From IMG/VR virus record IMGVR_UViG_3300045012_000181, positions 61,607 to 125,606 of that record: a DNA stretch of 64,000 bases, one strand, 5' to 3'. The notes under the pieces are model-generated. The model saw nothing but the letters and a program-made list of their open reading frames with translations. It made no database searches and was not told the DNA's origin. The DNA comes from a virus. Positions 3,742 through 59,752 of the stretch are shown here, in pieces. The translations under genes and the position numbers were made by a program. Positions within the stretch are counted from its first letter, which is position 1. Each line of letters starts with the position of its first letter.

Positions 3742-3743
3742 CT

Positions 3744-39939: not shown

Positions 39940-42900
39940 ATGCCTCCACTACCTCAACAACCCGATCAGCAACAAATTCCGCCTCTGCCTTCGACTGATC
40001 CGTTTGAGCAGTCCTATCAAAAGCACAAGGCCGAAATTGAGACTCCACAGGCGCCCCCAAAGGCGCCTGTTTCTCAAGGCGCCGATCCACGTGTGAGCGC
40101 TGACCCCCTTAGGGGCATTCTAGACCCCGTTCAGGTGGACAATGGTATCAAGCGACAGGCCTGGGATGCCTACCACGGGGCCAAGACACCTGAGGAGTTC
40201 CGGAAGTTCTTTGATAACGCCCAACTACCACAGGAAACCAAAAGAGCCCTTTGGAACCTGAAGTTCCAAGCACCTATTGAAACTGTGCAGGGCGCTCAAC
40301 AGGCCATCCAGCAGGCCGCTCCTCAAGAGACCTATCAGCAGTTTGTGGCTAAGAACTATCCAGCTTGGTCTCAGGCCCAGGCTCGTCCAGATGAACCCTC
40401 CGTGCCAATTCCCAGTATGTTTGGAACTCTCAATGTTCCGACATGGCACCAGTTACAAAAGAGCCTGGCACAGGCCCCGCCAAGCGAACAGGAGTGGCAG
40501 GCCCAGAATCAGTTGTGGAATAATCCCCAACAGGCCTTCCAGCAGATGGTCGGACAGATGGCCGCGCACCCGACCCAGACCGCTTTGGGCATGGTTGGTA
40601 CGGCCAGCGGGGCTCCAGAACAGGGAGCCCTGCCCTCCAAGCCCACTGTGGATGTCCAGAGCCTCTTACAGCCCAAGGGTAAGTTTGGCCAGGGCGCCGC
40701 TCAGGGTCTTAGCGAACTAACCAGCCCACAAAATATTGGAATGCTTCTTACAATTCCGGCCGAGCGTTTGATTGGCCTGTATTATAAGGGCCAGATGAGC
40801 TTGGATACCCTTCAACTGGTCAACCAAGCCCGTGCCAAGTATATGGCCGGTGATAATGCCGGTGCGCAGGAACTTCTTGGGCAGGCTGCCGTTACGGGCG
40901 GTATGGTTGCGGGCATGGAAGCCAGTGAACGCACGGGGCGTACGGCCAGTCAAACAACTCCACAGGGCCCCGCACGTGTCTCCGATATGGGCCGCGGGGA
41001 GGGCCAGCAGATGGCCGGTCCGGGAGTTCCCGGGCAGCCCACACCCGTTCAAATCGGGCCCACACAGACCGCCAACGTTGGCGTAGAGGGCGGACCCCGT
41101 CCTAGCATGCAATCCGGTCTTACGGCCGCCCAAGAGGTCACGGGCCGCAGTACGGGTGCCGGTTTGAGGGCTCCCACAAGTGCGCCCATCGAGCGCGGTG
41201 GCACCACGGCTGGTGGTACGGTTGGAACCGTAACGCCCAAGCCATCGACGCTGCCCTTGCACGTGCCGGAACAACGCACGGCCGAACTGGACCGCCGTCA
41301 AACCCTTGATCTGCCGCCGGCCGAGGGCGACCGCCGTTTGCAAGATCGCCGGAACATTAATGATGTGGCCCGGGAACAAATGACCCAGGGCCTGCAGGGA
41401 CAGCCCACACCGGGCCAGCAGCTTGAACAGACCATGCGCCAGGGTCTGCCCAAACCCGGTATTGATGAGGCTCAGGTCTGGCAGTATATTACTCAAAAGG
41501 GCATCAACAATCCGACTTGGTACGCGGAGTGGAAACGCCAGTTTGAGGCTGCTGCGGTTAAGAATCCCAGAAATGGGCCGGGCGAAATGCTCAAGGCCGT
41601 TCAGGCCGAGATGGAGGCCTCTAAGCAGCCCCAAATTCAGGCCCAACCAGTTGCTACACCGCAACCATCGGCCTTAGACAAAGTCCGCCAAATTCAAGGA
41701 GCTCCAACAGATGCCCAAAGGCCGTCCGGGCTTCCCCAAGCCCCGTCCAATGCCCCCGCCGAGCCAACCGGGCCAGGGCAACAGCCCGTTCGAGCAGCCC
41801 AAGCCCCCGCTGGTCCAGCCGGGGAACCCCTACCAGGCACCAAAGAGCCCGTTCGGCTAGCCGCGGCTACGCCGCGTGAACAGCAAACCAAACCGCAACC
41901 CAAGCCCTACGTCCCGCTTCCGCCGGGAGAGCGCCCACGCATGGTCGTGGGACCAAAGGAACCCGTTGGGGGCTCTAAAGAGGCGCCTCCGCCTGGGGCT
42001 ACGGCGCCGTCAGCTCCAGTTGAGATTCCCAAGGCCACACCCCGACCGGCTGGTGCGATGAAGCCCGAGTTGGAGTCTTGGAAGGAAACCCGCCGGACCG
42101 AGGCCCAACAGCGTAATGAGATTCTAAAACAGAACGCCCAAGGTCGAGAGCCTAAGGCCGATAACAGGGGCGAGCTGCACAAGGTCGTGGACCGTTATTT
42201 GAAGAGTCCCGGAGACTCGGCCCGCAGGGGCTTCGAGCTCGACCAGGCCGTGGAGGCCATCCGCAAGCAAGGCCCCGAGGCCATAGAGCGGGAGCATGCC
42301 GAGCTGTCCCAGAAGGCCACCCGAGCGGAGAAGATGGCCGATTGGGGCCACAAGGCCTTGGATAAGGGCGTTGAAGCCTGGGACTTGGAGATGCGCGATA
42401 AGGCCCACGCCGTTAAATTTCCGGCCTATGAGGAAGGCGGAGCAACCTATTTCACTGGCAAGACCACCGATGAGGGCAAACCCGAGGCCCACCTGAAGCC
42501 CTCCCGGGAGTTGCCAGCCGATGAGGCCGAAGCCATCGCCCGTCTGCGCGGGAACACGCTTAAAGAAGTCGGGACGCCCCGAGATGTGCCCGAGGAGGAA
42601 AAGGCCCAGCTTAAAACCTGGGAAGAGAACCGCGATAGGCTTGTGGAGGAGATTCGCAAGCGTGGCGGTAAGGTCACTGAGCAGGCCTACAAGCAGCTAC
42701 AAACATATATCACAGGTATCCAGAGCATCAAGGGCACGCGGTTTATCGTGGCCGGTGGTCCCGAACTAACAAAGGGCCCCGAGGGCGCACTGGAGCGCAC
42801 CGGCACTCGCACCACTCAGCAGATGTGGAACACGTTCCTAGGGCATCCCGAGGGGGCGCACTTTGCCCGCCCCAGCCGGGAACGCGTGGAAACACGCGTG

Positions 42901-45900
42901 AAGGAATTGGAGCGTGAGGCCCAGAAGTCCCGGGAAATCATGGGCGCTCTTAAGGGCGAGGAGCCCGCTGAGAAGGCCGAGCCCACAAAGACGCCGCTTT
43001 ATCCTAGCGTGGAGAAGGCCCCAGCACCCGAAGAGAAGTCCGAGGAGAGCGGTGGGGACTTCCTCATGCGCTTCTTTGAGAGCGAGGACCCCCGAATTAA
43101 GGAACTACTGCCCAAGGAAGCCGTGGAGGCCCTTAGCCGGTTGCATGACAAGATTGGTGAAACGCCCGAGCGCGAACAAGCGGCCAAAGAGGTTCTGGAG
43201 AGTATTGCCAAGAACAAAGGCAAAGACGCCATCGTAGATGCGGCCAAGAAGTACGGCAAGGCCTTACAGGGCTTGGTCCGTGAGGGCCTGTCTGAGCCCA
43301 AGGCCGAGCGACAGTTGCCAGCGCCCAAGGCCGAAGAGCCAACAGAGACCAAGGGCGGTTTTACCAACAAAACCCGAGAACTTTCCGAAAAGAATGCAGC
43401 CCAAGGTCGCGCGGACCGTCAAGACGGCCCATTGGATGTAGCACGTTTTAAAGGCCCAGCGCCCAAACAGCCGGCCGAGCCCGCCAAGACGCTCAGCGAC
43501 GAGGATGTCATGCACGACATCCAGAACATGCCCCACGTCAAGGAGGTCTACGATAAGCTCTCGGCCCAACAAAAACTGGAATTCATCGACCGCTACAAAG
43601 ACCCCAATCAGCATCCGGATGTGGACATTTTGGCGCCGCCTGAGCTGCGAGAACGTACAAAAGCCCCCAAGCCAGCCGAAAAAGAGCCCAGTGCCTTAGA
43701 AAAGGCCGAGGAGCTCTTTGAGCGCGCCAAGGCTTCGGGCGATTCCGAGGTGATCCAGCGGGCCAAGGACCTCCGAGACAGCCTACTAGAAACCAAGGCC
43801 AGCCCCGCTACACCGACAAAATCCGAAACCTCGTCTCCCGACACTCTTAGGCGAGCTGCAGCACGGGCTCCCCGTGAGGCCTCGCCTGAGGCTCTCAAGA
43901 AGCACGCCGAAAAGACCTCTAAAATTGAAGGCGAATACGCCCAAGATCGGGCCAAACATGCCGAGCGCCTGAATGAAGTACAGGCCCTAAGGGCCGTTGA
44001 CCCCAAGGACTACACGCCGGCCTTTGTGGACCGCTTGGAGAGATACGGCAAGGGCCTGCTGGATGCCGAGGGCCAACACGATTTTCTGGCCAAGGTCTTT
44101 GAGGCCCGCCAGAGATTCCGCGCGGGTGATGACAAAGCCGGACATGCCGCCGTAACTAGTGCCTTGGCCATGGCGGACCAACGCCTTTTTGTGCCCAAAG
44201 AGCCTGTCCTGCCAGTCAGGCCCTCAGTGCCAGCCGAGGAGGCACAACGGGGGCAGAGCAAAGCCGATTCGATTCGGGAGCAACTAGGCCGGATTGCCCA
44301 GCACGTCCAAGGTGTGCCTGTTGGCGAAGACCGCACCAACTTGGAACAACGCCTGCAGACCATCAGTTCCAAACTCGAAGAGACTGCCGCCAAGATGAAA
44401 TTGGCCATGCGCAATATTCGAGCCATGGAAGAGCGGGGCGAATTCGAGCGCACCTACAAAGACAAAGACGGCAAACCCGTCACAGAAACCCTCGATCAAA
44501 TCAAGGCCCGGGTGCGTAATTTGGGCTTGGAGCGTAGCCGATACGTTGAGGAACACCTGCCCGCTCTGGAGGTGGCTGCAAAGGCCTTAAGCCATTCGAC
44601 GGGCGAGAAACCCATTGACTATAAGCAGCCCAAGCCCGGGAAAACGGTGGCAGATGTTACGCGTTATGAGCCCGATCCCCGGACGGGCAAGCCCATACCT
44701 GTGCGGACGCAGCCCGAGGTCGTGGAGGCTCCGCAGGCCGGAACCCGAACCAAGGCCGAGCTCATAGATGATCTTAAGCAGGCCCAAGAACACCTCAAGA
44801 ACCTGATTAATAAATCCGTTGAGACGGAGTTTGATAAAACGGGCAAGGGCTCCAAGAAGTTCGGCTCCAGCGCGGAACAAAAGGGCGCTTCGGATCTGCG
44901 CAAGCTCATCACGGACTTGCAGCGCCAAATCGGGCCCAACGCGCCCGGTGCGGCCGAGGGCACCAAGGAAACCATCGAGGGCCAGGGCCTCCTTAAGGCC
45001 TCGGGTGCATTCCAGAAGCCCGCTGGCGAACGCATGACCGCGGGCGAGCCCACAGGACCCGCTCCAGAGGACCCCGTTGCGGACCTGCATGCCTACTTGA
45101 ATGAGTTCGCTGAAGCTCGCGATAAGGAAACCGGCGCTTTAAAGTGGGGCATTGACCCGACTGCGATGGAGTATATCAACAAGGCCCTTCCGAGTGGAAG
45201 TGCTGCCAAGACCTTCGGGCCCGCAGCCGAACACCTGGCTCGTCCGATTTTTGAGGCCATGCAAAGGGGCTCTATCATGCCCGATGTTGCGGCCAAGCGC
45301 CTTGAGCGCTCACTGCGAGCGCTGGCCAAGGGCCTTGCGGATGCCAAGAAGGCCCCGGCCGAACAACAGATTGACATCAGGAAAGCAGCCGTCTCGGAGG
45401 CAAAAAAAATCGCCCGCGGCGAAGGGCCAACGGGCGAGAAGGGTTCCTTTGATATCGGTAAGGAGCGGGGCCGTGGTCTAGAGGCCGCGAAGCGCATCCG
45501 CGAGGAGCGCGAACGCGAAGAGAAGGGCCCCTTCTACAGCATGTCCGAGAGGGTCGTACGGGAGAATTGGCCCGGCGGACCGGATGCCAAGGCCTCGCCT
45601 AAGGACATCGGTGGGATGCTCGCGAATGCAGGTGTGTCTAAGAACGAACTCAAGTGGTCCGATGTGGACAGCTACTTGCTGAAGGCCCAGAAAGAGGGCC
45701 GGCAGGTCACAAGGAAGGAAGTGCTGGATTATCTGAAGGAGAAGAATCCCCGGGTTGAGGTGACTGAAAAGAAGTTCGATAAGGCCGCAGCCACAGCGCA
45801 CCAAGAAAAACTTCGTGAATATTCCAACAAACTTGCGCAGGGCTTTGAGGAAACCAAGAACGCTCTAAAAGATGCCTTGGGCATTTCGGACAACAACGCT

Positions 45901-48900
45901 GCTGCACTGATACACAGGCATTCCGAGCTACCAGAGGACCGCGGTGGATCGGCCTACGCTAGGGAACAAGAGCTAAAGCAGCTCCGAAACGACGTGGAGG
46001 ATATTGCCCTGACTAAGGGCAAACACATCTCCATTGCCGAGTTGGACAAGCTCTTTGAAAAAATGGACCAGCACAACATACAGGCCTACAATTTTGAGAC
46101 CTTCCGGGATAGTCCGGAAATGCAAGGGGGTGCTAATGGCCCGCGCTACGAAAGCTATAGCATGCCCGGCGGCGACAACTACCGGGAGGTGCTGCTTAGA
46201 ATCCCCTCTGAAGGTATGAAGGGCGAGAAGATCGGAGAGGGTGCCGAGGCCAAGGACGTTTACCATGGTCCGCACTTCGACGAGCCCAACGTCGTGGCGC
46301 ACCTGCGCCTCAAGGACCGCGTGGATGCCTCTGGCAAGAAGACGCTCTTCATAGAAGAGGTTCAGAGCGATTGGGCTCGTGAGCTCCGAGAACAGCAGAA
46401 AAAAGGCGGTGAGGCGGCCTGGTTCGGTAACCCCCGCGGAGCCGGGATCGGTGCTCCGGATATGCCGTTCACCGAGGGCCACTGGCTCGAACTGGCCATG
46501 AAGCACGTGCTCAAGGAGGCCGCAAACAAGGGCTATGACAAGGTCGCATGGACCACGGGCGAGCAACAGGCCGCCCGATACAGTCTCCGAAAGCGTTTCG
46601 ACCGCATTGGTCTAGAGGAAGACCGAGACGGCCACGTGCACTTGGTCGGCCGTACACCGGGGAATGCCGAGGCCTACAATCCCTACAACACTCTAGAACG
46701 AAACATAGACCTTTCCAAATTGCACGAGTACGTAGGCCGGGAAAACGCCCAGAAACTACTGGAGGCCTACAGGGGCGCCGACCAACAGAAGCCCTCTAGA
46801 GCTTATATTGAAGCCAAGGATTTTGCCAAAGGCGGCGAACACCACCTCCAACTCTACGACAAGATGATTCCGCAATTTATGGAACGGTATGGCAAGAAGT
46901 GGGGCGCCAAGGTCGGGCAGAGCACTCTGGACACCACGGACATGGTTAAGGCACATGTGTCGCCTGGCGGAGCTGAAGCAACGTCCGCCACCGTACACAG
47001 CATGGACATCCCCTCGGCCATGCGCGATGTCCTCAAGCAACCCCTCCGGCAGATTGGCGGAAGTCAGGCCGGATTTGTGCGGCCCTTTGGCAAGAAGGCC
47101 ACCGAAGCGGCGGAGCGCAAGACCGCCAGGGAGAAGCAGGCCCAAGAACTCCGGGACGCCGTGGAGCAAAACAAGCCCCATCAAATCGCCCAGAAACTGG
47201 AGGGCTTCGTCCGAAGTCTGCCCAAGGGCACCGTGGACGAGCGCCTGAAGATGGCCAACGAGGCCATCAAAGCGCAGCCCTCAACAGGTCCGGGCCGTGT
47301 AAAGCAGGCCCTCCTGAACGCCCGAGTGAATCTGAAGACCATGGCCAGCTGGTACTGGAATGGCGAAAAATCCGGTATCAAACTCCGGGACGCCATGAAA
47401 GGCAACACCGATCCCAATGTGGGCTTCAAGAAGGCCCTAGGCCATTACAACGAGGCCTATCAGACCGCAGCGGCTGACGCCCACGCCGTCGTCGTGAACA
47501 TGCGCAAGGCCCATCCCCAGCACGTATTGGATGCCCTACATCTGGCCATGGACACCAACTTCGACAAGGACCTGCTGGCCAAGGCAGCCTCTAACGAGAA
47601 GTTGGACGCCCGCTTGCGCAAGGCCGCGCATGTGGCCCAGAATCTCACGCCTGAGGAGCTGGGCGCCGCGAAGGCATACTCGCAATTTTTCGAGGAACAG
47701 GGCCAGATGCTCAGCCGCATAGGCGCTCTGAGGCACATGCTCGAAAACTACGTCCCGCATATCGTCGACCCCGAAAGCGTACCGGGGCAGAAGTTCATGA
47801 GCGAATTGCGTGCGGGCGTCTTTGACACCAACTTCAAGTACGCCAAACAGCGCATCCACGAAACCATGCTCGATGGTGCCCAGAAGGGCATCAAATACCA
47901 GCTGGGCATCGACCGCGCCTTCTGGGATTATCACCGCCGGAGCACGCAGAGCATCGCCAGCCGGGCCTTCATCAAGGAACTCAATGGCGTTTCGCAAGAA
48001 GACAACAGGCCCGCACTGGTCCCGGGCTACAACACCATCCAGCCCATTTTGCCGGCCGAGTACAGCAAATACCCACAAATCAAAGAGATGCTCGATGCCA
48101 AACCCGAACTCAAAAAAGGCCTTGCGGACTCCTACATGTTCCGAGATAATCGGGGCCCTTCAGGTCCAATAGCCGACGTAAGCACATTAGAGGCCCTGGG
48201 CATCAAGTACAACGAAAAGACCCTAACGGAAAACGATAAGGCCCGGCTGGACGTGAGCGACTACAAGCACGTCGACCACCCAGATTTTAAACAGACGGTT
48301 TACGTTGGTAAGGGCCCGGACGGCAAGCCGGTCTTCTACAAGGCCGACCTCTATGCGCATCCGGCCATCTACGACCACCTCAAGAACATCTACGAGGCCT
48401 CACAGTTCAGAACAAACAAGGTCACGCAAACTGCGCTGGCCGTTACGGCAGCTTCCAAGCGCCTGCTTCTAAAGGTTCTGCCCAGCGGTTTCCACTACAG
48501 CCAAGAGGGCCTGCACAGCATCGGGCATGGCATAAACCCCTTCAAGAAGGACATCTGGAACGGTCAAACGGCCCGGGCCTCTCTAAACGACCCCGTTGTA
48601 AAGCGCGGTCTGCGAAGCGGCCTGCAATTGTTCGACTACGATAACGCCGACGCCATGGAAGGCATCAAGGGCGTCAAGGGCTTCGAGAAGGATTTCGAAA
48701 ATCACCTGTTTGGCAAATTCATCCCCGGCCTCAAAATCGAGACCTTCAAAAAGCAGGTGCACGAGAATCTGGAAATCTACGGCAAAAAGGGCTACTCCGA
48801 GGACCGCATCTATGAGATGACGGCTCAGCAAATCAACAACGCCTACGGAATGCAGAACCGACTGTTCACCGGTCGGACAAAGTTTATGCAGGATTTGTTC

Positions 48901-49509
48901 CGCTTGACGGCCCTAGCTCCGGACTTTCTAGAGAGTCGGGCAAGATTCGTGGGGAGTGCCTTTAGGCCAGGTGGCCGTCAACAGGCCATGGCCCTCATGC
49001 GCCTTGGATTGTACATGTACGGCACGGCCCGAGTTCTGAACGCCATCAGCAACGATGGCGACGCCAAATGGCACCCCAAGGACTTCTTCACATGGCACGT
49101 CCGCGGGCATGAATTCAGCATGCGCTCCGTGCTGACGGATGCCATCTTCGCCGCCACGGACCCCAGCGCCTTCCTGGCCTCTCGTGGAGCCCTGTTGCCC
49201 AGGGCCGTGTTTGCCGAAGGCCAGAAGGCCGGCACGCCCAAGTTTCTCAAGGACAAACAGCCCTCTGGAGTCATGCAGGGTCTCGTTCGGAGTCTGTCGC
49301 CCATCGTGGCCCAGAGGCCCATCATGGCGCTCATGCGCAAGGCCTATGAGCAAAAAAACGGCCCCAGTATTGCCTGGGAAACTTTCGCAGGCATACTTGA
49401 GGCCGTGGCAGGTGTTAAGGAAAAAGAGGAAACTTCCGACGGATCAACGCGGAGGTCGGGGCCTTCTGGGCCGCACCTGCCCCGAATGCCGAGGCTTTCC
49501 AGTCGGTGA
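39940..49509 (+). CDS. Giant (3189 aa) ejection / polyvalent-type protein
   Basis: Last gene of the ejection trio; embedded globular domain YREVLL..HF..PNVVAHLR..LFIEEVQSDW; NYVPHI..KYAKQR motif. Confidence 0.8.
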   Translation: MPPLPQQPDQQQIPPLPSTDPFEQSYQKHKAEIETPQAPPKAPVSQGADPRVSADPLRGILDPVQVDNGIKRQAWDAYHGAKTPEEFRKFFDNAQLPQETKRALWNLKFQAPIETVQGAQQAIQQAAPQETYQQFVAKNYPAWSQAQARPDEPSVPIPSMFGTLNVPTWHQLQKSLAQAPPSEQEWQAQNQLWNNPQQAFQQMVGQMAAHPTQTALGMVGTASGAPEQGALPSKPTVDVQSLLQPKGKFGQGAAQGLSELTSPQNIGMLLTIPAERLIGLYYKGQMSLDTLQLVNQARAKYMAGDNAGAQELLGQAAVTGGMVAGMEASERTGRTASQTTPQGPARVSDMGRGEGQQMAGPGVPGQPTPVQIGPTQTANVGVEGGPRPSMQSGLTAAQEVTGRSTGAGLRAPTSAPIERGGTTAGGTVGTVTPKPSTLPLHVPEQRTAELDRRQTLDLPPAEGDRRLQDRRNINDVAREQMTQGLQGQPTPGQQLEQTMRQGLPKPGIDEAQVWQYITQKGINNPTWYAEWKRQFEAAAVKNPRNGPGEMLKAVQAEMEASKQPQIQAQPVATPQPSALDKVRQIQGAPTDAQRPSGLPQAPSNAPAEPTGPGQQPVRAAQAPAGPAGEPLPGTKEPVRLAAATPREQQTKPQPKPYVPLPPGERPRMVVGPKEPVGGSKEAPPPGATAPSAPVEIPKATPRPAGAMKPELESWKETRRTEAQQRNEILKQNAQGREPKADNRGELHKVVDRYLKSPGDSARRGFELDQAVEAIRKQGPEAIEREHAELSQKATRAEKMADWGHKALDKGVEAWDLEMRDKAHAVKFPAYEEGGATYFTGKTTDEGKPEAHLKPSRELPADEAEAIARLRGNTLKEVGTPRDVPEEEKAQLKTWEENRDRLVEEIRKRGGKVTEQAYKQLQTYITGIQSIKGTRFIVAGGPELTKGPEGALERTGTRTTQQMWNTFLGHPEGAHFARPSRERVETRVKELEREAQKSREIMGALKGEEPAEKAEPTKTPLYPSVEKAPAPEEKSEESGGDFLMRFFESEDPRIKELLPKEAVEALSRLHDKIGETPEREQAAKEVLESIAKNKGKDAIVDAAKKYGKALQGLVREGLSEPKAERQLPAPKAEEPTETKGGFTNKTRELSEKNAAQGRADRQDGPLDVARFKGPAPKQPAEPAKTLSDEDVMHDIQNMPHVKEVYDKLSAQQKLEFIDRYKDPNQHPDVDILAPPELRERTKAPKPAEKEPSALEKAEELFERAKASGDSEVIQRAKDLRDSLLETKASPATPTKSETSSPDTLRRAAARAPREASPEALKKHAEKTSKIEGEYAQDRAKHAERLNEVQALRAVDPKDYTPAFVDRLERYGKGLLDAEGQHDFLAKVFEARQRFRAGDDKAGHAAVTSALAMADQRLFVPKEPVLPVRPSVPAEEAQRGQSKADSIREQLGRIAQHVQGVPVGEDRTNLEQRLQTISSKLEETAAKMKLAMRNIRAMEERGEFERTYKDKDGKPVTETLDQIKARVRNLGLERSRYVEEHLPALEVAAKALSHSTGEKPIDYKQPKPGKTVADVTRYEPDPRTGKPIPVRTQPEVVEAPQAGTRTKAELIDDLKQAQEHLKNLINKSVETEFDKTGKGSKKFGSSAEQKGASDLRKLITDLQRQIGPNAPGAAEGTKETIEGQGLLKASGAFQKPAGERMTAGEPTGPAPEDPVADLHAYLNEFAEARDKETGALKWGIDPTAMEYINKALPSGSAAKTFGPAAEHLARPIFEAMQRGSIMPDVAAKRLERSLRALAKGLADAKKAPAEQQIDIRKAAVSEAKKIARGEGPTGEKGSFDIGKERGRGLEAAKRIREEREREEKGPFYSMSERVVRENWPGGPDAKASPKDIGGMLANAGVSKNELKWSDVDSYLLKAQKEGRQVTRKEVLDYLKEKNPRVEVTEKKFDKAAATAHQEKLREYSNKLAQGFEETKNALKDALGISDNNAAALIHRHSELPEDRGGSAYAREQELKQLRNDVEDIALTKGKHISIAELDKLFEKMDQHNIQAYNFETFRDSPEMQGGANGPRYESYSMPGGDNYREVLLRIPSEGMKGEKIGEGAEAKDVYHGPHFDEPNVVAHLRLKDRVDASGKKTLFIEEVQSDWARELREQQKKGGEAAWFGNPRGAGIGAPDMPFTEGHWLELAMKHVLKEAANKGYDKVAWTTGEQQAARYSLRKRFDRIGLEEDRDGHVHLVGRTPGNAEAYNPYNTLERNIDLSKLHEYVGRENAQKLLEAYRGADQQKPSRAYIEAKDFAKGGEHHLQLYDKMIPQFMERYGKKWGAKVGQSTLDTTDMVKAHVSPGGAEATSATVHSMDIPSAMRDVLKQPLRQIGGSQAGFVRPFGKKATEAAERKTAREKQAQELRDAVEQNKPHQIAQKLEGFVRSLPKGTVDERLKMANEAIKAQPSTGPGRVKQALLNARVNLKTMASWYWNGEKSGIKLRDAMKGNTDPNVGFKKALGHYNEAYQTAAADAHAVVVNMRKAHPQHVLDALHLAMDTNFDKDLLAKAASNEKLDARLRKAAHVAQNLTPEELGAAKAYSQFFEEQGQMLSRIGALRHMLENYVPHIVDPESVPGQKFMSELRAGVFDTNFKYAKQRIHETMLDGAQKGIKYQLGIDRAFWDYHRRSTQSIASRAFIKELNGVSQEDNRPALVPGYNTIQPILPAEYSKYPQIKEMLDAKPELKKGLADSYMFRDNRGPSGPIADVSTLEALGIKYNEKTLTENDKARLDVSDYKHVDHPDFKQTVYVGKGPDGKPVFYKADLYAHPAIYDHLKNIYEASQFRTNKVTQTALAVTAASKRLLLKVLPSGFHYSQEGLHSIGHGINPFKKDIWNGQTARASLNDPVVKRGLRSGLQLFDYDNADAMEGIKGVKGFEKDFENHLFGKFIPGLKIETFKKQVHENLEIYGKKGYSEDRIYEMTAQQINNAYGMQNRLFTGRTKFMQDLFRLTALAPDFLESRARFVGSAFRPGGRQQAMALMRLGLYMYGTARVLNAISNDGDAKWHPKDFFTWHVRGHEFSMRSVLTDAIFAATDPSAFLASRGALLPRAVFAEGQKAGTPKFLKDKQPSGVMQGLVRSLSPIVAQRPIMALMRKAYEQKNGPSIAWETFAGILEAVAGVKEKEETSDGSTRRSGPSGPHLPRMPRLSSR

Positions 49510-49563: not shown

Positions 49564-49866
49564 CTACTGATTCTCGATTTGTTCGTTTGAAGCCTCCTGC
49601 ATTACAACTACAGTTTCATTCAGCCCCGGTTCAGTCGCCGGGGCTGTTGCATTTTCCGGGCCATTTTCAGCGGGACCAGTTGGTTGTGAGGGCTCTGCCG
49701 CGGCCGGCTGGGAGGGGTTGTTCTTGAGCTGGGCCCTTCGGCTGTACCAATCCGTGCGACTCTGAAGGAACTGCTGGATGGCCTTGGAGTTGATTGTGTC
49801 CATCCGGAGCATCTTCAAGAGGATGAGAATTTCCAGTAGCATCAGCAATCGGTCCAGCCAGTTCAT
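49564..49866 (-). CDS. Small protein with hydrophobic N-terminus
   Basis: AAGAGGT SD; last gene of the minus arm. Confidence 0.55.
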   Translation of the reverse strand: MNWLDRLLMLLEILILLKMLRMDTINSKAIQQFLQSRTDWYSRRAQLKNNPSQPAAAEPSQPTGPAENGPENATAPATEPGLNETVVVMQEASNEQIENQ

Positions 49867-50212
49867 TTTCAGACCTCTTAGTATCCAAATGTGGTGGCCC
49901 AGTCGGAACCTGGCATTCGGCGGCTTCTATCTCAAGTTGCAGGAGGGCCAGACATCTCCAGGCCATTTTTGCTGAATGCCTCGTGCCATCCTCATCCAGC
50001 GTACCGCGTTCCATAAAGTGCCGGATTATGCAATCGGCGTGATCCGTGCTTTTCTCGCGGGCCCAGTGCAGGGGCTGGCCGGGATTGTGCTGCTGATTTC
50101 CTATATAGCTGACGTGGGCCACAGCGGCAATGGCATCCGGGAAGTACCCCAAGACGCCGCTTCCAATGGGCATTTCCTTACGGGCCTGTTTATCCGTGGG
50201 CAATTTGGCCAA
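49667..50212 (-). CDS. dATP/dGTP diphosphohydrolase-like (DUF5664-type) protein
   Basis: YFPDAIAAVA.VS..GN.QHNPG.PLHWAREKSTDH.DCI.RH..ERG..D.DG.RHSAK.AWR.LA.LQ. Confidence 0.75.
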   Translation of the reverse strand: MAKLPTDKQARKEMPIGSGVLGYFPDAIAAVAHVSYIGNQQHNPGQPLHWAREKSTDHADCIIRHFMERGTLDEDGTRHSAKMAWRCLALLQLEIEAAECQVPTGPPHLDTKRSENELAGPIADATGNSHPLEDAPDGHNQLQGHPAVPSESHGLVQPKGPAQEQPLPAGRGRALTTNWSR

Positions 50213-50778
50213 TTGTCAATTCCTCCGTCAAATATTCATCCAAATTTTCAACAATATGCACGCCATCCGGGAACGGGCTAGCGCTATTGTAGGGCGCCAG
50301 ATGGGCATAGCTCTTGATGCCAGCTTCGTGCATATCAATTATGGTGGCCCTTTTGTCATCTATAAACGACGATAACTCCAGAGCCTGGGCAATGGCGGCC
50401 TTCTGGCCCGGTTTGTCAACAACTATGACAGTGGGGTAGGTGATGCCAAACCAGTTCCTGAGGGCCCAACAGGCCTGCTCGCGGGGCGTCATGCCAGCTG
50501 TGGGCACCCGGCTGGTTATGAAGAAAAATTCCGCCCGTTTATGCATGTACTGCAAGTCCCTCGTGGCGGGCATGGGCTTGAGCGTCATCCAGAAATTCTT
50601 GATGCGCCGGATTTCGTCCCAGACCTTGTCCACCTGTTCGGGCGAATATTCGTCCTCGAAGTCCCAGGTTAACTGCGGTCCGGAGTGATTGGTACCGAAC
50701 ATGGGATTGGCGATTCTGTAGAAAGCCCCCACGAAATCGAACACCACACCGTCAAAGGTCCACCCCAAGTTTTCTCAT
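50190..50778 (-). CDS. HAD-family 5'(3')-deoxyribonucleotidase-like phosphatase, split by a +1 frameshift
   Basis: ATG50778 (ATGA-coupled) MRKLGVDL + frame-shifted DGVVFDF gives DxDGV; FFITSR; FIDDK. Confidence 0.8.
50751..50766 (-). promoter_or_regulatory. prfB-like +1 frameshift cassette GGGGTG-GAC-CTT-TGA-C
   Basis: SD-like hexamer 3 nt before CTT TGA C, the same geometry as in RF2 genes; could be an assembly indel. Confidence 0.5.
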
Positions 50779-51068
50779 GGACACTGTTGTGTTCCTTTCT
50801 CTAGGTCTTGTTGGAAGTAATGTTTATCCAACTTTTCTATCAAATCCGTTAAGAGGCCCAACTCGCGCTTATCAAAGGTCATACGAAATTCCTCTTTGGG
50901 GTTTTTACCCTTGACCACGAACTCCAAAAAGCGCTCATCAATGGTCCCCAAGGCGCTGGCCTCACAGGACAGCGTTAAGGCCACTGCGTCCGGTAACACA
51001 TCCAACTCGACTCTTTTGGCCTCTTCTATTTCGTTTGTAGAGGACTGCGTAAGCTTCATTATCACCAT
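50775..51068 (-). CDS. Hypothetical protein
   Basis: GGGAG SD before ATG51068. Confidence 0.6.
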   Translation of the reverse strand: MVIMKLTQSSTNEIEEAKRVELDVLPDAVALTLSCEASALGTIDERFLEFVVKGKNPKEEFRMTFDKRELGLLTDLIEKLDKHYFQQDLEKGTQQCP

Positions 51069-51069
51069 A

Positions 51070-51267
51070 TCAGCTCCCAAACATCTTAACAACATCCGCG
51101 TACGTCTCGTTGGCCTCCAGAACCTCACCGGCCAGCATACAGAGATAGCTCTGCGGCCCGCCCCACTGGGCCTTGGGCACGGCCTGAACCCAAACCACGT
51201 GCTCGGTATTCACCAAGCAGTCCAAATTGCCCCCGGGCAGGGCCCGCGTTATCGTAATGAATGGCAT
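51070..51267 (-). CDS. Small hypothetical protein (phage accessory type)
   Basis: FITI..LVNTEHVVWV..EVLEANETYADV pattern. Confidence 0.65.
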   Translation of the reverse strand: MPFITITRALPGGNLDCLVNTEHVVWVQAVPKAQWGGPQSYLCMLAGEVLEANETYADVVKMFGS

Positions 51268-57100: not shown

Positions 57101-57257
57101 TTGTTTTCCTTAAAAACCTTAGAAGAGCCTTGGAACAGTCTTGACACAGCTCTTTGTCCACATCAAGAGACAGTCCCTCCAGACTTAAACGACATTGTTC
57201 ACAAAACTCAGGTATGTCTTTAGCACATCTATCACATCTGACTACGGTTTTTCTCAT
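57093..57257 (-). CDS. 54-aa Cys-rich peptide MRKTVVRCDRC...LCQDC
   Basis: ATGA overlap with the polymerase stop; three CxxC. Confidence 0.6.
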   Translation of the reverse strand: MRKTVVRCDRCAKDIPEFCEQCRLSLEGLSLDVDKELCQDCSKALLRFLRKTIE

Positions 57258-59752
57258 TTCGCCTCGCCCCAACTTCCCCCCACACCTGTTTCAACAGGAA
57301 AACTGTAGCCTCCAAACTCTTTCCAAGGCTGCGTAAGAACCTTCTCTAAAACGGTCTTTACCTCATCCACCATATTCAGGGGGGTCTCCAAAACAAAACT
57401 ATCGTGCACAGTTACCAACAGACGAGCCGGATGCGGTAGAGGATGATAAACCTGAACCACCTTTTGAACCTCAGATTCAGGCCAACCGATTCTGTCGTAC
57501 ATCAGGGCAATCATGCAACGGATAAGAATCTCGGCGCCGCAACTTTGAGGGAGGAAAGAAATCGACTCAGTATGGGCGCTGGAAGTGTAGAAAAAACGCT
57601 TGCGCCCGAAGGGATTTGTTAGATAGCCGTCGGCTTTGGCTCGGGCTGCGGTTTCGTTCTGCCAAGCGATGGTTTTGGGATTGGCAGCCTTCCATTTGTC
57701 CACCAGAACTTTTACCTCGGCGTAGGGCAAGTCGTTAATCTTGGCTATCTTCATAGCCCCCTCAGCGTAGTTCAAGCCGTGGGTGACCTTCTTGGCCTTT
57801 GTGTATGGACTGTCTCCTGCGGAATCTTTTACGACTTCATCGTAGGGAATATCAAATAGGGTGCTGGCATTGTATTTATGCTCGGAATAACCAGGTTGTG
57901 CCAACCTATCTAGGCGTTCGTAGTCATTAGACAACAACGCCGTTAGGCGGTTCTCCAGGGAAGCAAAGTCCGAACTTACGATAACCCAATCGTTGTGACT
58001 GGGAACGTAAATATAGCGAGCACTTGCAGGAAGATTTTGAAGATTGGGTCCGCTACTCGATAGTCGCCCCGAGGCAGTTCCATGAACATTAAATGAGGCA
58101 TGAATGCGCTCGACACCGCTGTCCTCCCAGCTCTCCTTCACGAAAGTGCTTAGCAAGCTGGCAATCTGTCTTAGCTGTTGCAGGACTCGCAGGGCCTTGA
58201 GGACTTCGAGGGCTTTGTCGAGTCCGACTTCCTGTTCGTAGGCTTTTCGGGAAGCCGCCCGGATGAGCTTGGGAAGGGCGACCTTGTCAACAGTCGGTTC
58301 ATTCGTCTTCGCATGCGTTTGTACTGGGAGCTTCGCTTTCGCATATAAGTAATCCTTCAGAACCTCAGAGCTCTTCCAAGGCGTAACACTCTCGGTGGAG
58401 TCCGTCATCACATATTTGAGGGGCTTTTTTGTGCGCTCGGACAGAGTTCCAGGAGGCGCCAAAACGCGTTTGCGTATCGGGACCTCCTGGGTCTGTAATT
58501 CCGCTGGAAGTTCGTTCTCCAGCTCTTTTGACTTGTGCTCCAAGTCTGCCCGAACAGTTTTGAGACGGGCGGGATCGATTCGGAATCCGGTTTCGTGCAG
58601 CAGATGGCAGATACGGGCCAAGGGCACTTGGACATTCTGGTACAAATCCAAGAGTCCCTCATTCCGGAGCATTGGCCGCAGTTGCTGGTAAATTTGAAAG
58701 GTCGCGTCACAGTCCCTTATGTTGTAGAGGGTTTCATCGTCGCCGGATAGATGCTTCCAAGCGGTCTTATTAAGCAGGAAGCTTCCAACGAAGCCCAAGC
58801 CATGAGGCATATCAGGGAAGCACAAATGTTCCATAAGCATGCCATCCCACGAATGGAAGTCCTTGGGAGGCTCTATGCCGATGGCCTTGAGACGGGGCAA
58901 ATCGAACTGCTCACCATTCCAAGTTACAATGTCCGTGGCGTTGGCAAAAATACGCTTGAGCTCAGTTAGATAGACGCCCTTTGGGGGCACACTTAATCCG
59001 GTGTACTTTTGGCCGCACAGACCCACCATGGTAATTTCGCCGGTGGTACGGACCGTTTCTATGTCCGTCGCGAATTCCCTGAACTGAAAGGCCCTCACGT
59101 CCTCCAAAGTTGGAGTGGTGTTGTAGTGTTCCGGAGCGAGGTCTAGCGTTTTCGAGAGGTCTTTGACAACCGCTGGGATGTAGCTTTGGTCGCGGGCGAT
59201 ATAGGCCGGGTGCAACGTCGGGACTGTAAGGGGCTCCGGACCGCACGCGGGAACTGCGAGGGGAGAACCGCGCCATCGCATGATTCCAGTTTTTCCGGTG
59301 AGCGCAATAAGGCTCTTATCGCCAAAGCAATCAATCCGAGTCCAATTACGACCAGTGAGAACGGGCTTAACATGGTTGTTCCAGCATTGTTTTAGTGCGG
59401 CTTCCGCCTCTTCCTTCGATATGTAATCTCGTGCATCAGGATCAGTAGGAAAAATATTACCAGGGGGCCTACAACCCAATACGTTGCACTTCGAAACGGT
59501 TGCGCCTTCGACTCCAGCAGCGCGGTATAAACCTCCTGAACGCTTGCCATTTTCACCCTCTTTTCCGAACAGCCAGCCACCGCTCGTGCCCACGAAGGGC
59601 TCGGAGCGCTCGGCCTCAAGTTCACCGGGCGCCTCGCCCACACACAGGCGGCTACCAGCAACCAAATGGGCCGGAACAAAGTTGGAATTCGGGAAGAGCC
59701 GCGCCATGGGACATCCGGCACAGCCTGGAGTTTCACTAACGGTCTTAGGCAA
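57254..59752 (-). CDS. polA: Family A DNA polymerase with N-terminal uracil-DNA-glycosylase-like domain (SPO1-type fusion)
   Basis: CAGCPM/VGEAPG/HPAY UDG motifs; TDIET, WNGEQFD exonuclease; GRLSSSGPNLQN, DFASLENR, KKVTHGLNY, VHDS. Confidence 0.92.
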   Translation of the reverse strand: MPKTVSETPGCAGCPMARLFPNSNFVPAHLVAGSRLCVGEAPGELEAERSEPFVGTSGGWLFGKEGENGKRSGGLYRAAGVEGATVSKCNVLGCRPPGNIFPTDPDARDYISKEEAEAALKQCWNNHVKPVLTGRNWTRIDCFGDKSLIALTGKTGIMRWRGSPLAVPACGPEPLTVPTLHPAYIARDQSYIPAVVKDLSKTLDLAPEHYNTTPTLEDVRAFQFREFATDIETVRTTGEITMVGLCGQKYTGLSVPPKGVYLTELKRIFANATDIVTWNGEQFDLPRLKAIGIEPPKDFHSWDGMLMEHLCFPDMPHGLGFVGSFLLNKTAWKHLSGDDETLYNIRDCDATFQIYQQLRPMLRNEGLLDLYQNVQVPLARICHLLHETGFRIDPARLKTVRADLEHKSKELENELPAELQTQEVPIRKRVLAPPGTLSERTKKPLKYVMTDSTESVTPWKSSEVLKDYLYAKAKLPVQTHAKTNEPTVDKVALPKLIRAASRKAYEQEVGLDKALEVLKALRVLQQLRQIASLLSTFVKESWEDSGVERIHASFNVHGTASGRLSSSGPNLQNLPASARYIYVPSHNDWVIVSSDFASLENRLTALLSNDYERLDRLAQPGYSEHKYNASTLFDIPYDEVVKDSAGDSPYTKAKKVTHGLNYAEGAMKIAKINDLPYAEVKVLVDKWKAANPKTIAWQNETAARAKADGYLTNPFGRKRFFYTSSAHTESISFLPQSCGAEILIRCMIALMYDRIGWPESEVQKVVQVYHPLPHPARLLVTVHDSFVLETPLNMVDEVKTVLEKVLTQPWKEFGGYSFPVETGVGGSWGEAK

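Follow-up and report, generated by a model that had tools for sequence, protein, structure and literature searches.

A probable prfB-type +1 frameshift site formed by insertion of a T in the catalytic motif of a phage deoxyribonucleotidase-like gene

We consider the phosphatase-like gene described here to carry, with a probability of roughly 65%, a real +1 frameshift site of the prfB type that is young and convergent and that has been made repeatedly by T insertion. The DNA that was analyzed, hereafter the window, is a stretch of 64,000 nt comprising bases 61607-125606 of the 125.6-kb IMG/VR virus record IMGVR_UViG_3300045012_000181. According to our reading of this gene, one extra T between the Leu-CTT and Asp-GAC codons of motif I (DxDGV) breaks the frame after codon 8 and thereby produces the sequence CUU-UGA-C.

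The minus strand of the window, to which all positions in this paragraph belong, reads ATG AGA AAA CTT GGG GTG GAC CTT TGA C GGT GTG GTG TTC GAT TTC at this site. The ATG (50778-50776) opens a frame-0 leader of 8 codons, MRKLGVDL (50755-50778), which matches the family N-terminus MK(K/R)LG(I/V)DxD and contains the GAC codon of the nucleophile Asp7 (50760-50758). The shift heptamer CTT-TGA-C occupies 50751-50757, with CTT at 50757-50755, TGA at 50754-50752 and C at 50751, and 3 nt 5' of its CTT stands a Shine-Dalgarno (SD)-like hexamer, GGGGTG (50761-50766), that is made of Gly-Val codons and has a predicted anti-SD duplex energy of -9.2 kcal/mol. The +1 frame (50190-50753) contains the intact body of an NT5C-type HAD phosphatase, which extends from the GAC of Asp9, the general acid/base, to a stop at 50192-50190. 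The product of the open reading frame (ORF) track starts at a TTG in this +1 frame (50766-50768) and begins MGWTFDGVV. Upstream lies an ORF of 117 aa (50775-51128) without a family match, and its TGA stop overlaps the phosphatase ATG in the form ATGA, which suggests that translation of the phosphatase is coupled to that of the upstream ORF. This upstream gene (stop at 50775-50777) shares its frame with the +1 body of the phosphatase, and nothing but its TGA and two sense codons lies between it and the +1-frame TTG. The string, its ATG and the CTT-TGA-C are exactly as given in a preliminary description of this DNA, which had also reported the ATGA overlap that we find.

The heptamer is not enriched by itself, with 4 copies in the 64,000-nt window against 8 expected. 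What goes beyond chance is its phase and place, for a +1 step at this point restores HAD motif I, and three unrelated NT5C genes share the interruption. A second convincing CTT-TGA shift candidate was looked for across the 125.6-kb record and none was seen, and nothing stands out in the RNA structure around the site (z = -0.07).

When TGAC is taken as one step, the gene yields a protein of 195 aa (P0001) that begins MRKLGVDLDGVVFDF. This protein matches the Pfam family NT5C (PF06941) with 43.2 bits against a cut-off of 24.8 (E 5e-11), and the match starts at its residue 4 and at profile position 4. Among the PHROGs it matches phrog_420 (1.6e-16) and phrog_2643, a 5'-3' deoxyribonucleotidase (4e-6). 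Its motif aligns with the DMDGV...DF of the human mitochondrial deoxyribonucleotidase 1mh9, in which we take the first Asp to be the nucleophile. The HAD motif I, D7-L-D9-G-V, is present only in the +1-restored reading. The ORF-track product, which starts at TTG 50768, is without this motif and its first, nucleophilic Asp, and is expected to be inactive. Both points had been made in the preliminary description; the NT5C match and the 1mh9 alignment agree with the claim that a +1 shift rebuilds the full motif I, and the TTG-start sequence confirms the loss of the nucleophile. The window protein also retains all of the invariant residues of the family, namely T88, S89 and R90, which are invariant, and K126, D140 and D141, which are nearly so; the T-S-R, Lys and DD columns presumably represent HAD motifs II-IV. 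The gene is best read as encoding a phage 5'(3')-deoxyribonucleotidase-like HAD phosphatase of the NT5C family. It resembles this family (PF06941; 1mh9; phrog_2643 and phrog_420) in the motif I DxDGV...DF, in size, in a match above the Pfam cut-off and in its place among phage nucleotide-metabolism genes, and differs from it in that motif I is divided over two reading frames.

Because the extra T is a one-base difference in a short T run of a metagenome-assembled contig, and because the comparison was made at the level of contigs, it might be a sequencing or assembly error, in which case the true genome would read CTT GAC. A contig made by a second assembler (Logan; 102,361 nt, mean depth 16.3) is identical to the window over 50300-51200, with no base gained or lost. 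This contig comes from the sole public run that contains the whole stretch, which is probably the source sample, and the comparison is one of contig to contig. A second soil run has a relative, but with no coverage of the shift site. With two assemblers agreeing at depth 16, an assembly slip is very unlikely; a true mutation would agree with this evidence, taken alone, just as well. Moreover, the identical insertion is present in three further assemblies from other studies, and the ORF of one of these copies (L085, described below) was recorded from both ENA and JGI contigs. An Illumina consensus seldom gains a base in a run of 2-3 nt. We regard the probability that the T is an error as close to negligible.

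The pattern GAY-CTT-TGA-C-GGN-GTN was found exactly at motif I of three very distant NT5C genes, which we call L010, L085 and L175. L010, on a groundwater contig, has the ribosome-binding site GGAGGAGGAAG and an ATG, and reads MTKRLKLGIDL, a stop and then, in the +1 frame, DGVVSDF, so that the shift falls at codon 11/12. In L085 (IMGVR_UViG_3300027910_000011), the ATG at 3743, with GGAG 6 nt upstream, opens 21 codons ending in INVDL, followed in +1 by DGVLVDF (shift at codon 21/22). L175 (IMGVR_UViG_3300049919_000129) has the ribosome-binding site TAGGAGGT and an ATG, and its MNKIYLDL is continued in +1 by DGVLVNF (shift at codon 8/9). The +1 frame carries on the conserved protein in each case: once restored, all three give matches to NT5C or phrog_2643 that begin at the N-terminus. 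These genes are otherwise open until the normal stop. Each of the four genes, including that of the window, has a single lesion, and the TGA is followed by C in all four copies. One NT5C gene each, and no second one, was found in the three viral records searched (those of the window, L085 and L175). Pairwise identity among the four shifted proteins is only 20-37%, and for three of them the nearest relative, at 79%, 93% and 92% identity, is in frame. Together, these values indicate that the interruption arose at least four times, each time recently. Furthermore, that three phage NT5C genes have independently come to carry the heptamer at this very codon favors a site that is repaired in translation and disfavors a dead gene.

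The NT5C family is large, with 12,961 representatives at E <= 1e-3. A tblastn search of cultured phages found no relative, and neither did a scan of viral_contigs with the family alignment. The DxD is in frame in 169 of 177 family proteins from the subfamilies of the window gene and L010 and in 80 of 88 proteins of the L085 subfamily. About 250 relatives are in frame in all, and every close relative of the window gene is among them, including the two closest, at 79% (MKKLGIDCDGV) and 74% (MKKLGIDLDGV) identity. The site is therefore young and shows no conservation at the level of a clade. The preliminary description had proposed to see whether homologs keep CTT-TGA-C, and by this criterion of its own the in-frame close homologs count against a conserved device. 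A sporadic site with in-frame relatives is unlike the classical programmed shifts and would fit a transient variant.

Several other members of the family differ at motif I. In two full-length members, P0073 and P0098, an Ala replaces the nucleophilic Asp (GIALDGV and GLAVDGC), and these should be natural variants that are catalytically dead. The called starts of P0127, P0198 and P0221 lie exactly after the DGV of motif I, like that of the shifted L085 ORF. These three occur on contigs of 8 to 67 kb, P0127 on 8 contigs, and judging from their starts they may be further shifted copies. More generally, the six short-start relatives P0004, P0015, P0127, P0173, P0198 and P0221 may carry the same site.

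The distribution of lesions among the relatives bears on whether such an interruption could be ordinary decay. In 19 loci found by homology alone, which contain 10.7 kb of open NT5C frame, the sole break is the L010 heptamer. The in-frame motif GAY-CTT-GAC-GGN-GTN..GAY-TT was found at 83 loci in viral_contigs, 60 of which are HAD gene starts. These 60 in-frame viral HAD genes amount to 28.9 kb and have no premature stop or shift, and all 50 that end inside their locus keep at least 134 aa past the motif. If breaks were evenly spread, the chance that a single one would fall at this inter-codon site would be 17/10,734 and 61/28,948 for the two sets, or about 0.002 each, with the window's own break left uncounted in both estimates. 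As a control, we considered copies in which this run had become one T shorter, a change that by slippage should be at least as frequent as a gain but that creates no shift-prone site. This search gave six matches (two distinct sequences), of which none was a HAD gene, in numbers that are small. The viral scan with the most general shifted pattern returned L085 and L175 together with seven chance matches that have frames of 18-33 codons. The narrower pattern G-(I/V)-D-L-shift-D-G-V had no match in viral_contigs; in cellular genomes it had 64 matches against about 69 calculated by chance, none of them at a HAD gene start. The scans with shifted patterns covered the form CTT-TGA-C in DxDGV motifs.

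Selection was assessed by comparing L010 with its in-frame sister L009, from which it differs at 94 of 588 bases. The dN/dS ratio is 0.063 at a dS of 0.89, a sign of purifying selection, and of the six codon differences within the leaders, five leave the frame-0 amino acid unchanged. Pseudogenes are recognized by several lesions and by relaxed selection; here, there is one lesion per gene, and the ratio for L010 against L009 is 0.063. Among the many lesions that are possible, the surveyed relatives showed none except that which makes the best-known +1 shift site. On the basis of the lesion surveys, the controls and the signs of selection, an error is rejected and a plain neutral loss of function is hard to hold.

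The main rival to the frameshift reading, which we judge to be unlikely, is that the gene is freshly dead, the T insertion having inactivated it so recently that it has not yet decayed, and that the recurrence reflects an unrecognized mutational hot spot at CTT|GAC. The in-frame state of all close relatives, which makes each interruption recent, is in accordance with this explanation, as are the lack of an SD-like stimulator in three of the four copies, the frequent dispensability of such phage accessory genes and the existence of the family members P0073 and P0098 with Ala at the nucleophile. However, four independent lesions at the same inter-codon position all make the one heptamer that is known for efficient shifting, and no other lesion was seen in the 10.7 and 28.9 kb of relatives. 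The equally likely one-T deletion was unseen. Moreover, a run of two T is a poor target for slippage compared with longer runs in the same genes, and the dN/dS of L010 is low.

A working product might also be obtained by routes other than a frameshift, either by starting at the +1-frame TTG or by re-initiation after the leader, both of which give a protein without the nucleophile. We think it very improbable that the functional product is such a shortened (TTG-50768) or re-initiated protein acting as a non-catalytic nucleotide binder. The window, L010 and L175 do have a +1-frame TTG shortly before the stop, and family members with Ala at the nucleophile exist; however, L085 has no such TTG and has only a GTG after the motif. 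The shortened protein would lose the catalytic Asp alone and keep all of the other catalytic motifs, which makes little sense as a design, and many simpler mutations would remove the Asp. In addition, the leader still encodes the family N-terminus in frame 0, where most of the leader differences between L010 and L009 are synonymous. The remaining explanation, to which we allow only a slight chance, is that the insertion shields the gene against cleavage by a homing endonuclease directed at the conserved coding sequence of motif I and is tolerated because the ribosome repairs it. It is suggested by a GIY-YIG homing endonuclease gene (phrog_314, E 3e-30) at L085:2982-3689 on the minus strand, which directly adjoins the shifted L085 gene. 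However, only one of the four copies has such a neighbor, since the shifted genes of the window, L010 and L175 have no adjoining endonuclease gene, and for this reason a general link with homing endonucleases was rejected.

Three further readings of the site were considered and rejected. Decoding of TGA as an amino acid would lead into frame 0, which has no homology past the stop. If ribosomes read through the TGA of the upstream gene and went on in the +1 frame, they would fuse two proteins without supplying the nucleophile, and the run of three T is too short for transcriptional slippage. A search for a phage tRNA or suppressor found none.

In the frameshift reading that we prefer, ribosomes would initiate at the ATG that is coupled to the upstream gene and translate MRKLGVDL. 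Two outcomes would then be possible. Either RF2 would release a peptide of 8 residues, or the peptidyl-tRNA-Leu would slip from CUU to UUU, so that GAC would be read as Asp9 and the full active enzyme would be made, with LGVDLDGVVFDFVGAFYR as the predicted junction peptide. In the window, the GGGGUG 3 nt upstream would stimulate the slip, as AGGGGG does in prfB. The output of enzyme would be sub-stoichiometric, set by RF2 against slippage, and would fall as the RF2 activity of the host rises; this RF2 dependence would follow from the frameshift mechanism itself. We infer both actual shifting by ribosomes and its efficiency from the sequence. With regard to origin, GAY-CTT-GAC is one T away from the cassette, so that the site could arise repeatedly, as it would have done in at least four phage lineages, and it might persist because this particular lesion still yields enzyme. 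The caveat in the preliminary description, by which a T added to the codons would yield an identical string, is thus an account of how the site arose and not an alternative to frameshifting.

The mechanism is modeled on that of bacterial prfB. RF2 is slow to terminate when UGA-C occupies the A site; the peptidyl-tRNA-Leu shifts its pairing from CUU to UUU, GAC is decoded, and an SD-like element 3 nt upstream stimulates this slip (PMC12421855, PMC10798248). CUU-UGA-C shifts at about 50% in E. coli and B. subtilis and at about 7% in Flavobacterium johnsoniae and Mycobacterium smegmatis, where SD pairing is not used (PMC12421855, PMC10798248). Natural prfB sites without an SD element still work at a lower level (PMC12421855, PMC10798248). 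In E. coli, prfB shifting is almost lost when the SD element is mutated (PMC10798248). The window site shares with prfB (AGGGGG, a 3-nt spacer and CUU-UGA-C) the identical heptamer, the identical Leu-Asp junction, an RF2-specific stop with the weak C at +4 and, in the window copy, an SD-like hexamer at the equal 3-nt spacing. It differs in that the product is a phosphatase and not RF2, so that there is no autoregulatory loop; in that the site is placed at codon 8-22, inside a catalytic motif; and in that the insertions are young and independent, with no clade-wide conservation and with the SD-like element missing in three of the four copies.

The SD-like element deserves separate consideration. 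The duplex of GGGGTG with the anti-SD, at the energy given above, ranks in the top 2.3% of the 18-mers of this genome, compared with -10.7 kcal/mol for the prfB-like AGGGGG of E. coli. The pairing and the 3-nt spacing that the preliminary description had pointed out are thus borne out for the window copy. It had also suggested seeing whether homologs keep the SD-like codons, and the other three shifted copies are without them, as no SD-like element was found near the heptamers of L010, L085 and L175 (duplex -1.5 to -3.1 kcal/mol). Being made of Gly-Val codons, the hexamer in the window may be a coincidence. SD-like 5-mers precede 26% of the first ATGs in this phage, the background being 6%, which indicates that the host probably uses SD pairing. 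TGA accounts for 36% of this phage's stops, among which TGAC is the rarest TGA context (5/35). The site corresponds to a prfB-type cassette in the CTT-TGA-C and in the +1 frame that carries on the conserved protein, and departs from it in conservation among homologs and in autoregulation; it could act as a switch in the manner of prfB, although without the feedback.

The statement in the preliminary description that no phage example was known is too strong, since +1 shifts at stop codons reportedly occur in structural genes of the Listeria phage PSA. The two cases are alike in that both concern phage genes in which a P-site tRNA would slip +1 while a stop waits in the A site. They differ in that PSA makes C-terminally extended structural proteins with a different slippery codon, whereas the window gene uses the prfB heptamer and would need the shift for any active product. 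No literature linking a deoxyribonucleotidase to frameshifting was found.

Whether the arrangement is adaptive is a separate question. It is possible, although we hold it as a tentative idea and think it less probable than the opposite, that phages have convergently put a deoxynucleotide phosphatase under +1 control, with a low level of enzyme that rises when RF2 termination in the host weakens, and that this would be an adaptive use of CUU-UGA-C outside prfB, reborn and not inherited. A phage might benefit from RF2 dependence through a low dose of an enzyme that destroys dNMPs or through a coupling to the termination capacity of the host. The role of a translation-state sensor that had been proposed for the enzyme would follow from what is known of prfB alone.

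According to the PRFect paper, all CUU-stop +1 sites in RECODE belong to prfB (PMC10885494), so that prfB is the only known signal of this kind there. In addition, the frameshift finder GeneTack, on which the largest of the surveys consulted was based, overlooks breaks that lie up to 50 nt from a start (PMC3711429), and such sites have therefore been annotated as truncated genes. If ribosomes do shift at the sites described here, the prfB device would be a general and easily reinvented switch, available by a one-base insertion at any Leu-CTT that is followed by Asp-GAC; a number of phage "pseudogenes" and of ORFs with a short N-terminus would be full enzymes; and phage nucleotide-pool enzymes could be tied to the state of translation termination in the host. 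The four sites, with and without the SD-like stimulator, form a natural series for the effect of the heptamer alone.

The phosphatase gene stands at the end of a minus-strand module of replication and nucleotide genes. The other members are a family A DNA polymerase with a UDG-like N-terminal part, an AAA_25 helicase-like protein, an RNase H-fold exonuclease, an endonuclease VII and a VWA protein. The gene immediately downstream (49667-50212, minus strand) encodes a dATP/dGTP diphosphohydrolase N-terminal domain (PF18909, phrog_27780) and begins within the last codons of the phosphatase gene; the overlap places the two genes in one nucleotide-pool module. No PurZ was found in the 125.6 kb. In the 181-aa frame of the downstream gene, PF18909 covers residues 21-99 only, and the rest matches nothing in Pfam or PHROGs; an ORF of 100 aa in another frame (49564-49866, minus strand) overlaps this remaining part. 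The family A DNA polymerase (57254-59752, minus strand; 832 aa) weakly matches both uracil-DNA-glycosylase-like and RNase H-fold domains in its N-terminal part. On the plus strand, a single ORF of 3189 aa (39940-49509) stops just short of the nucleotide module; Pro, Gln, Ala and Glu are abundant in its N-terminal third.
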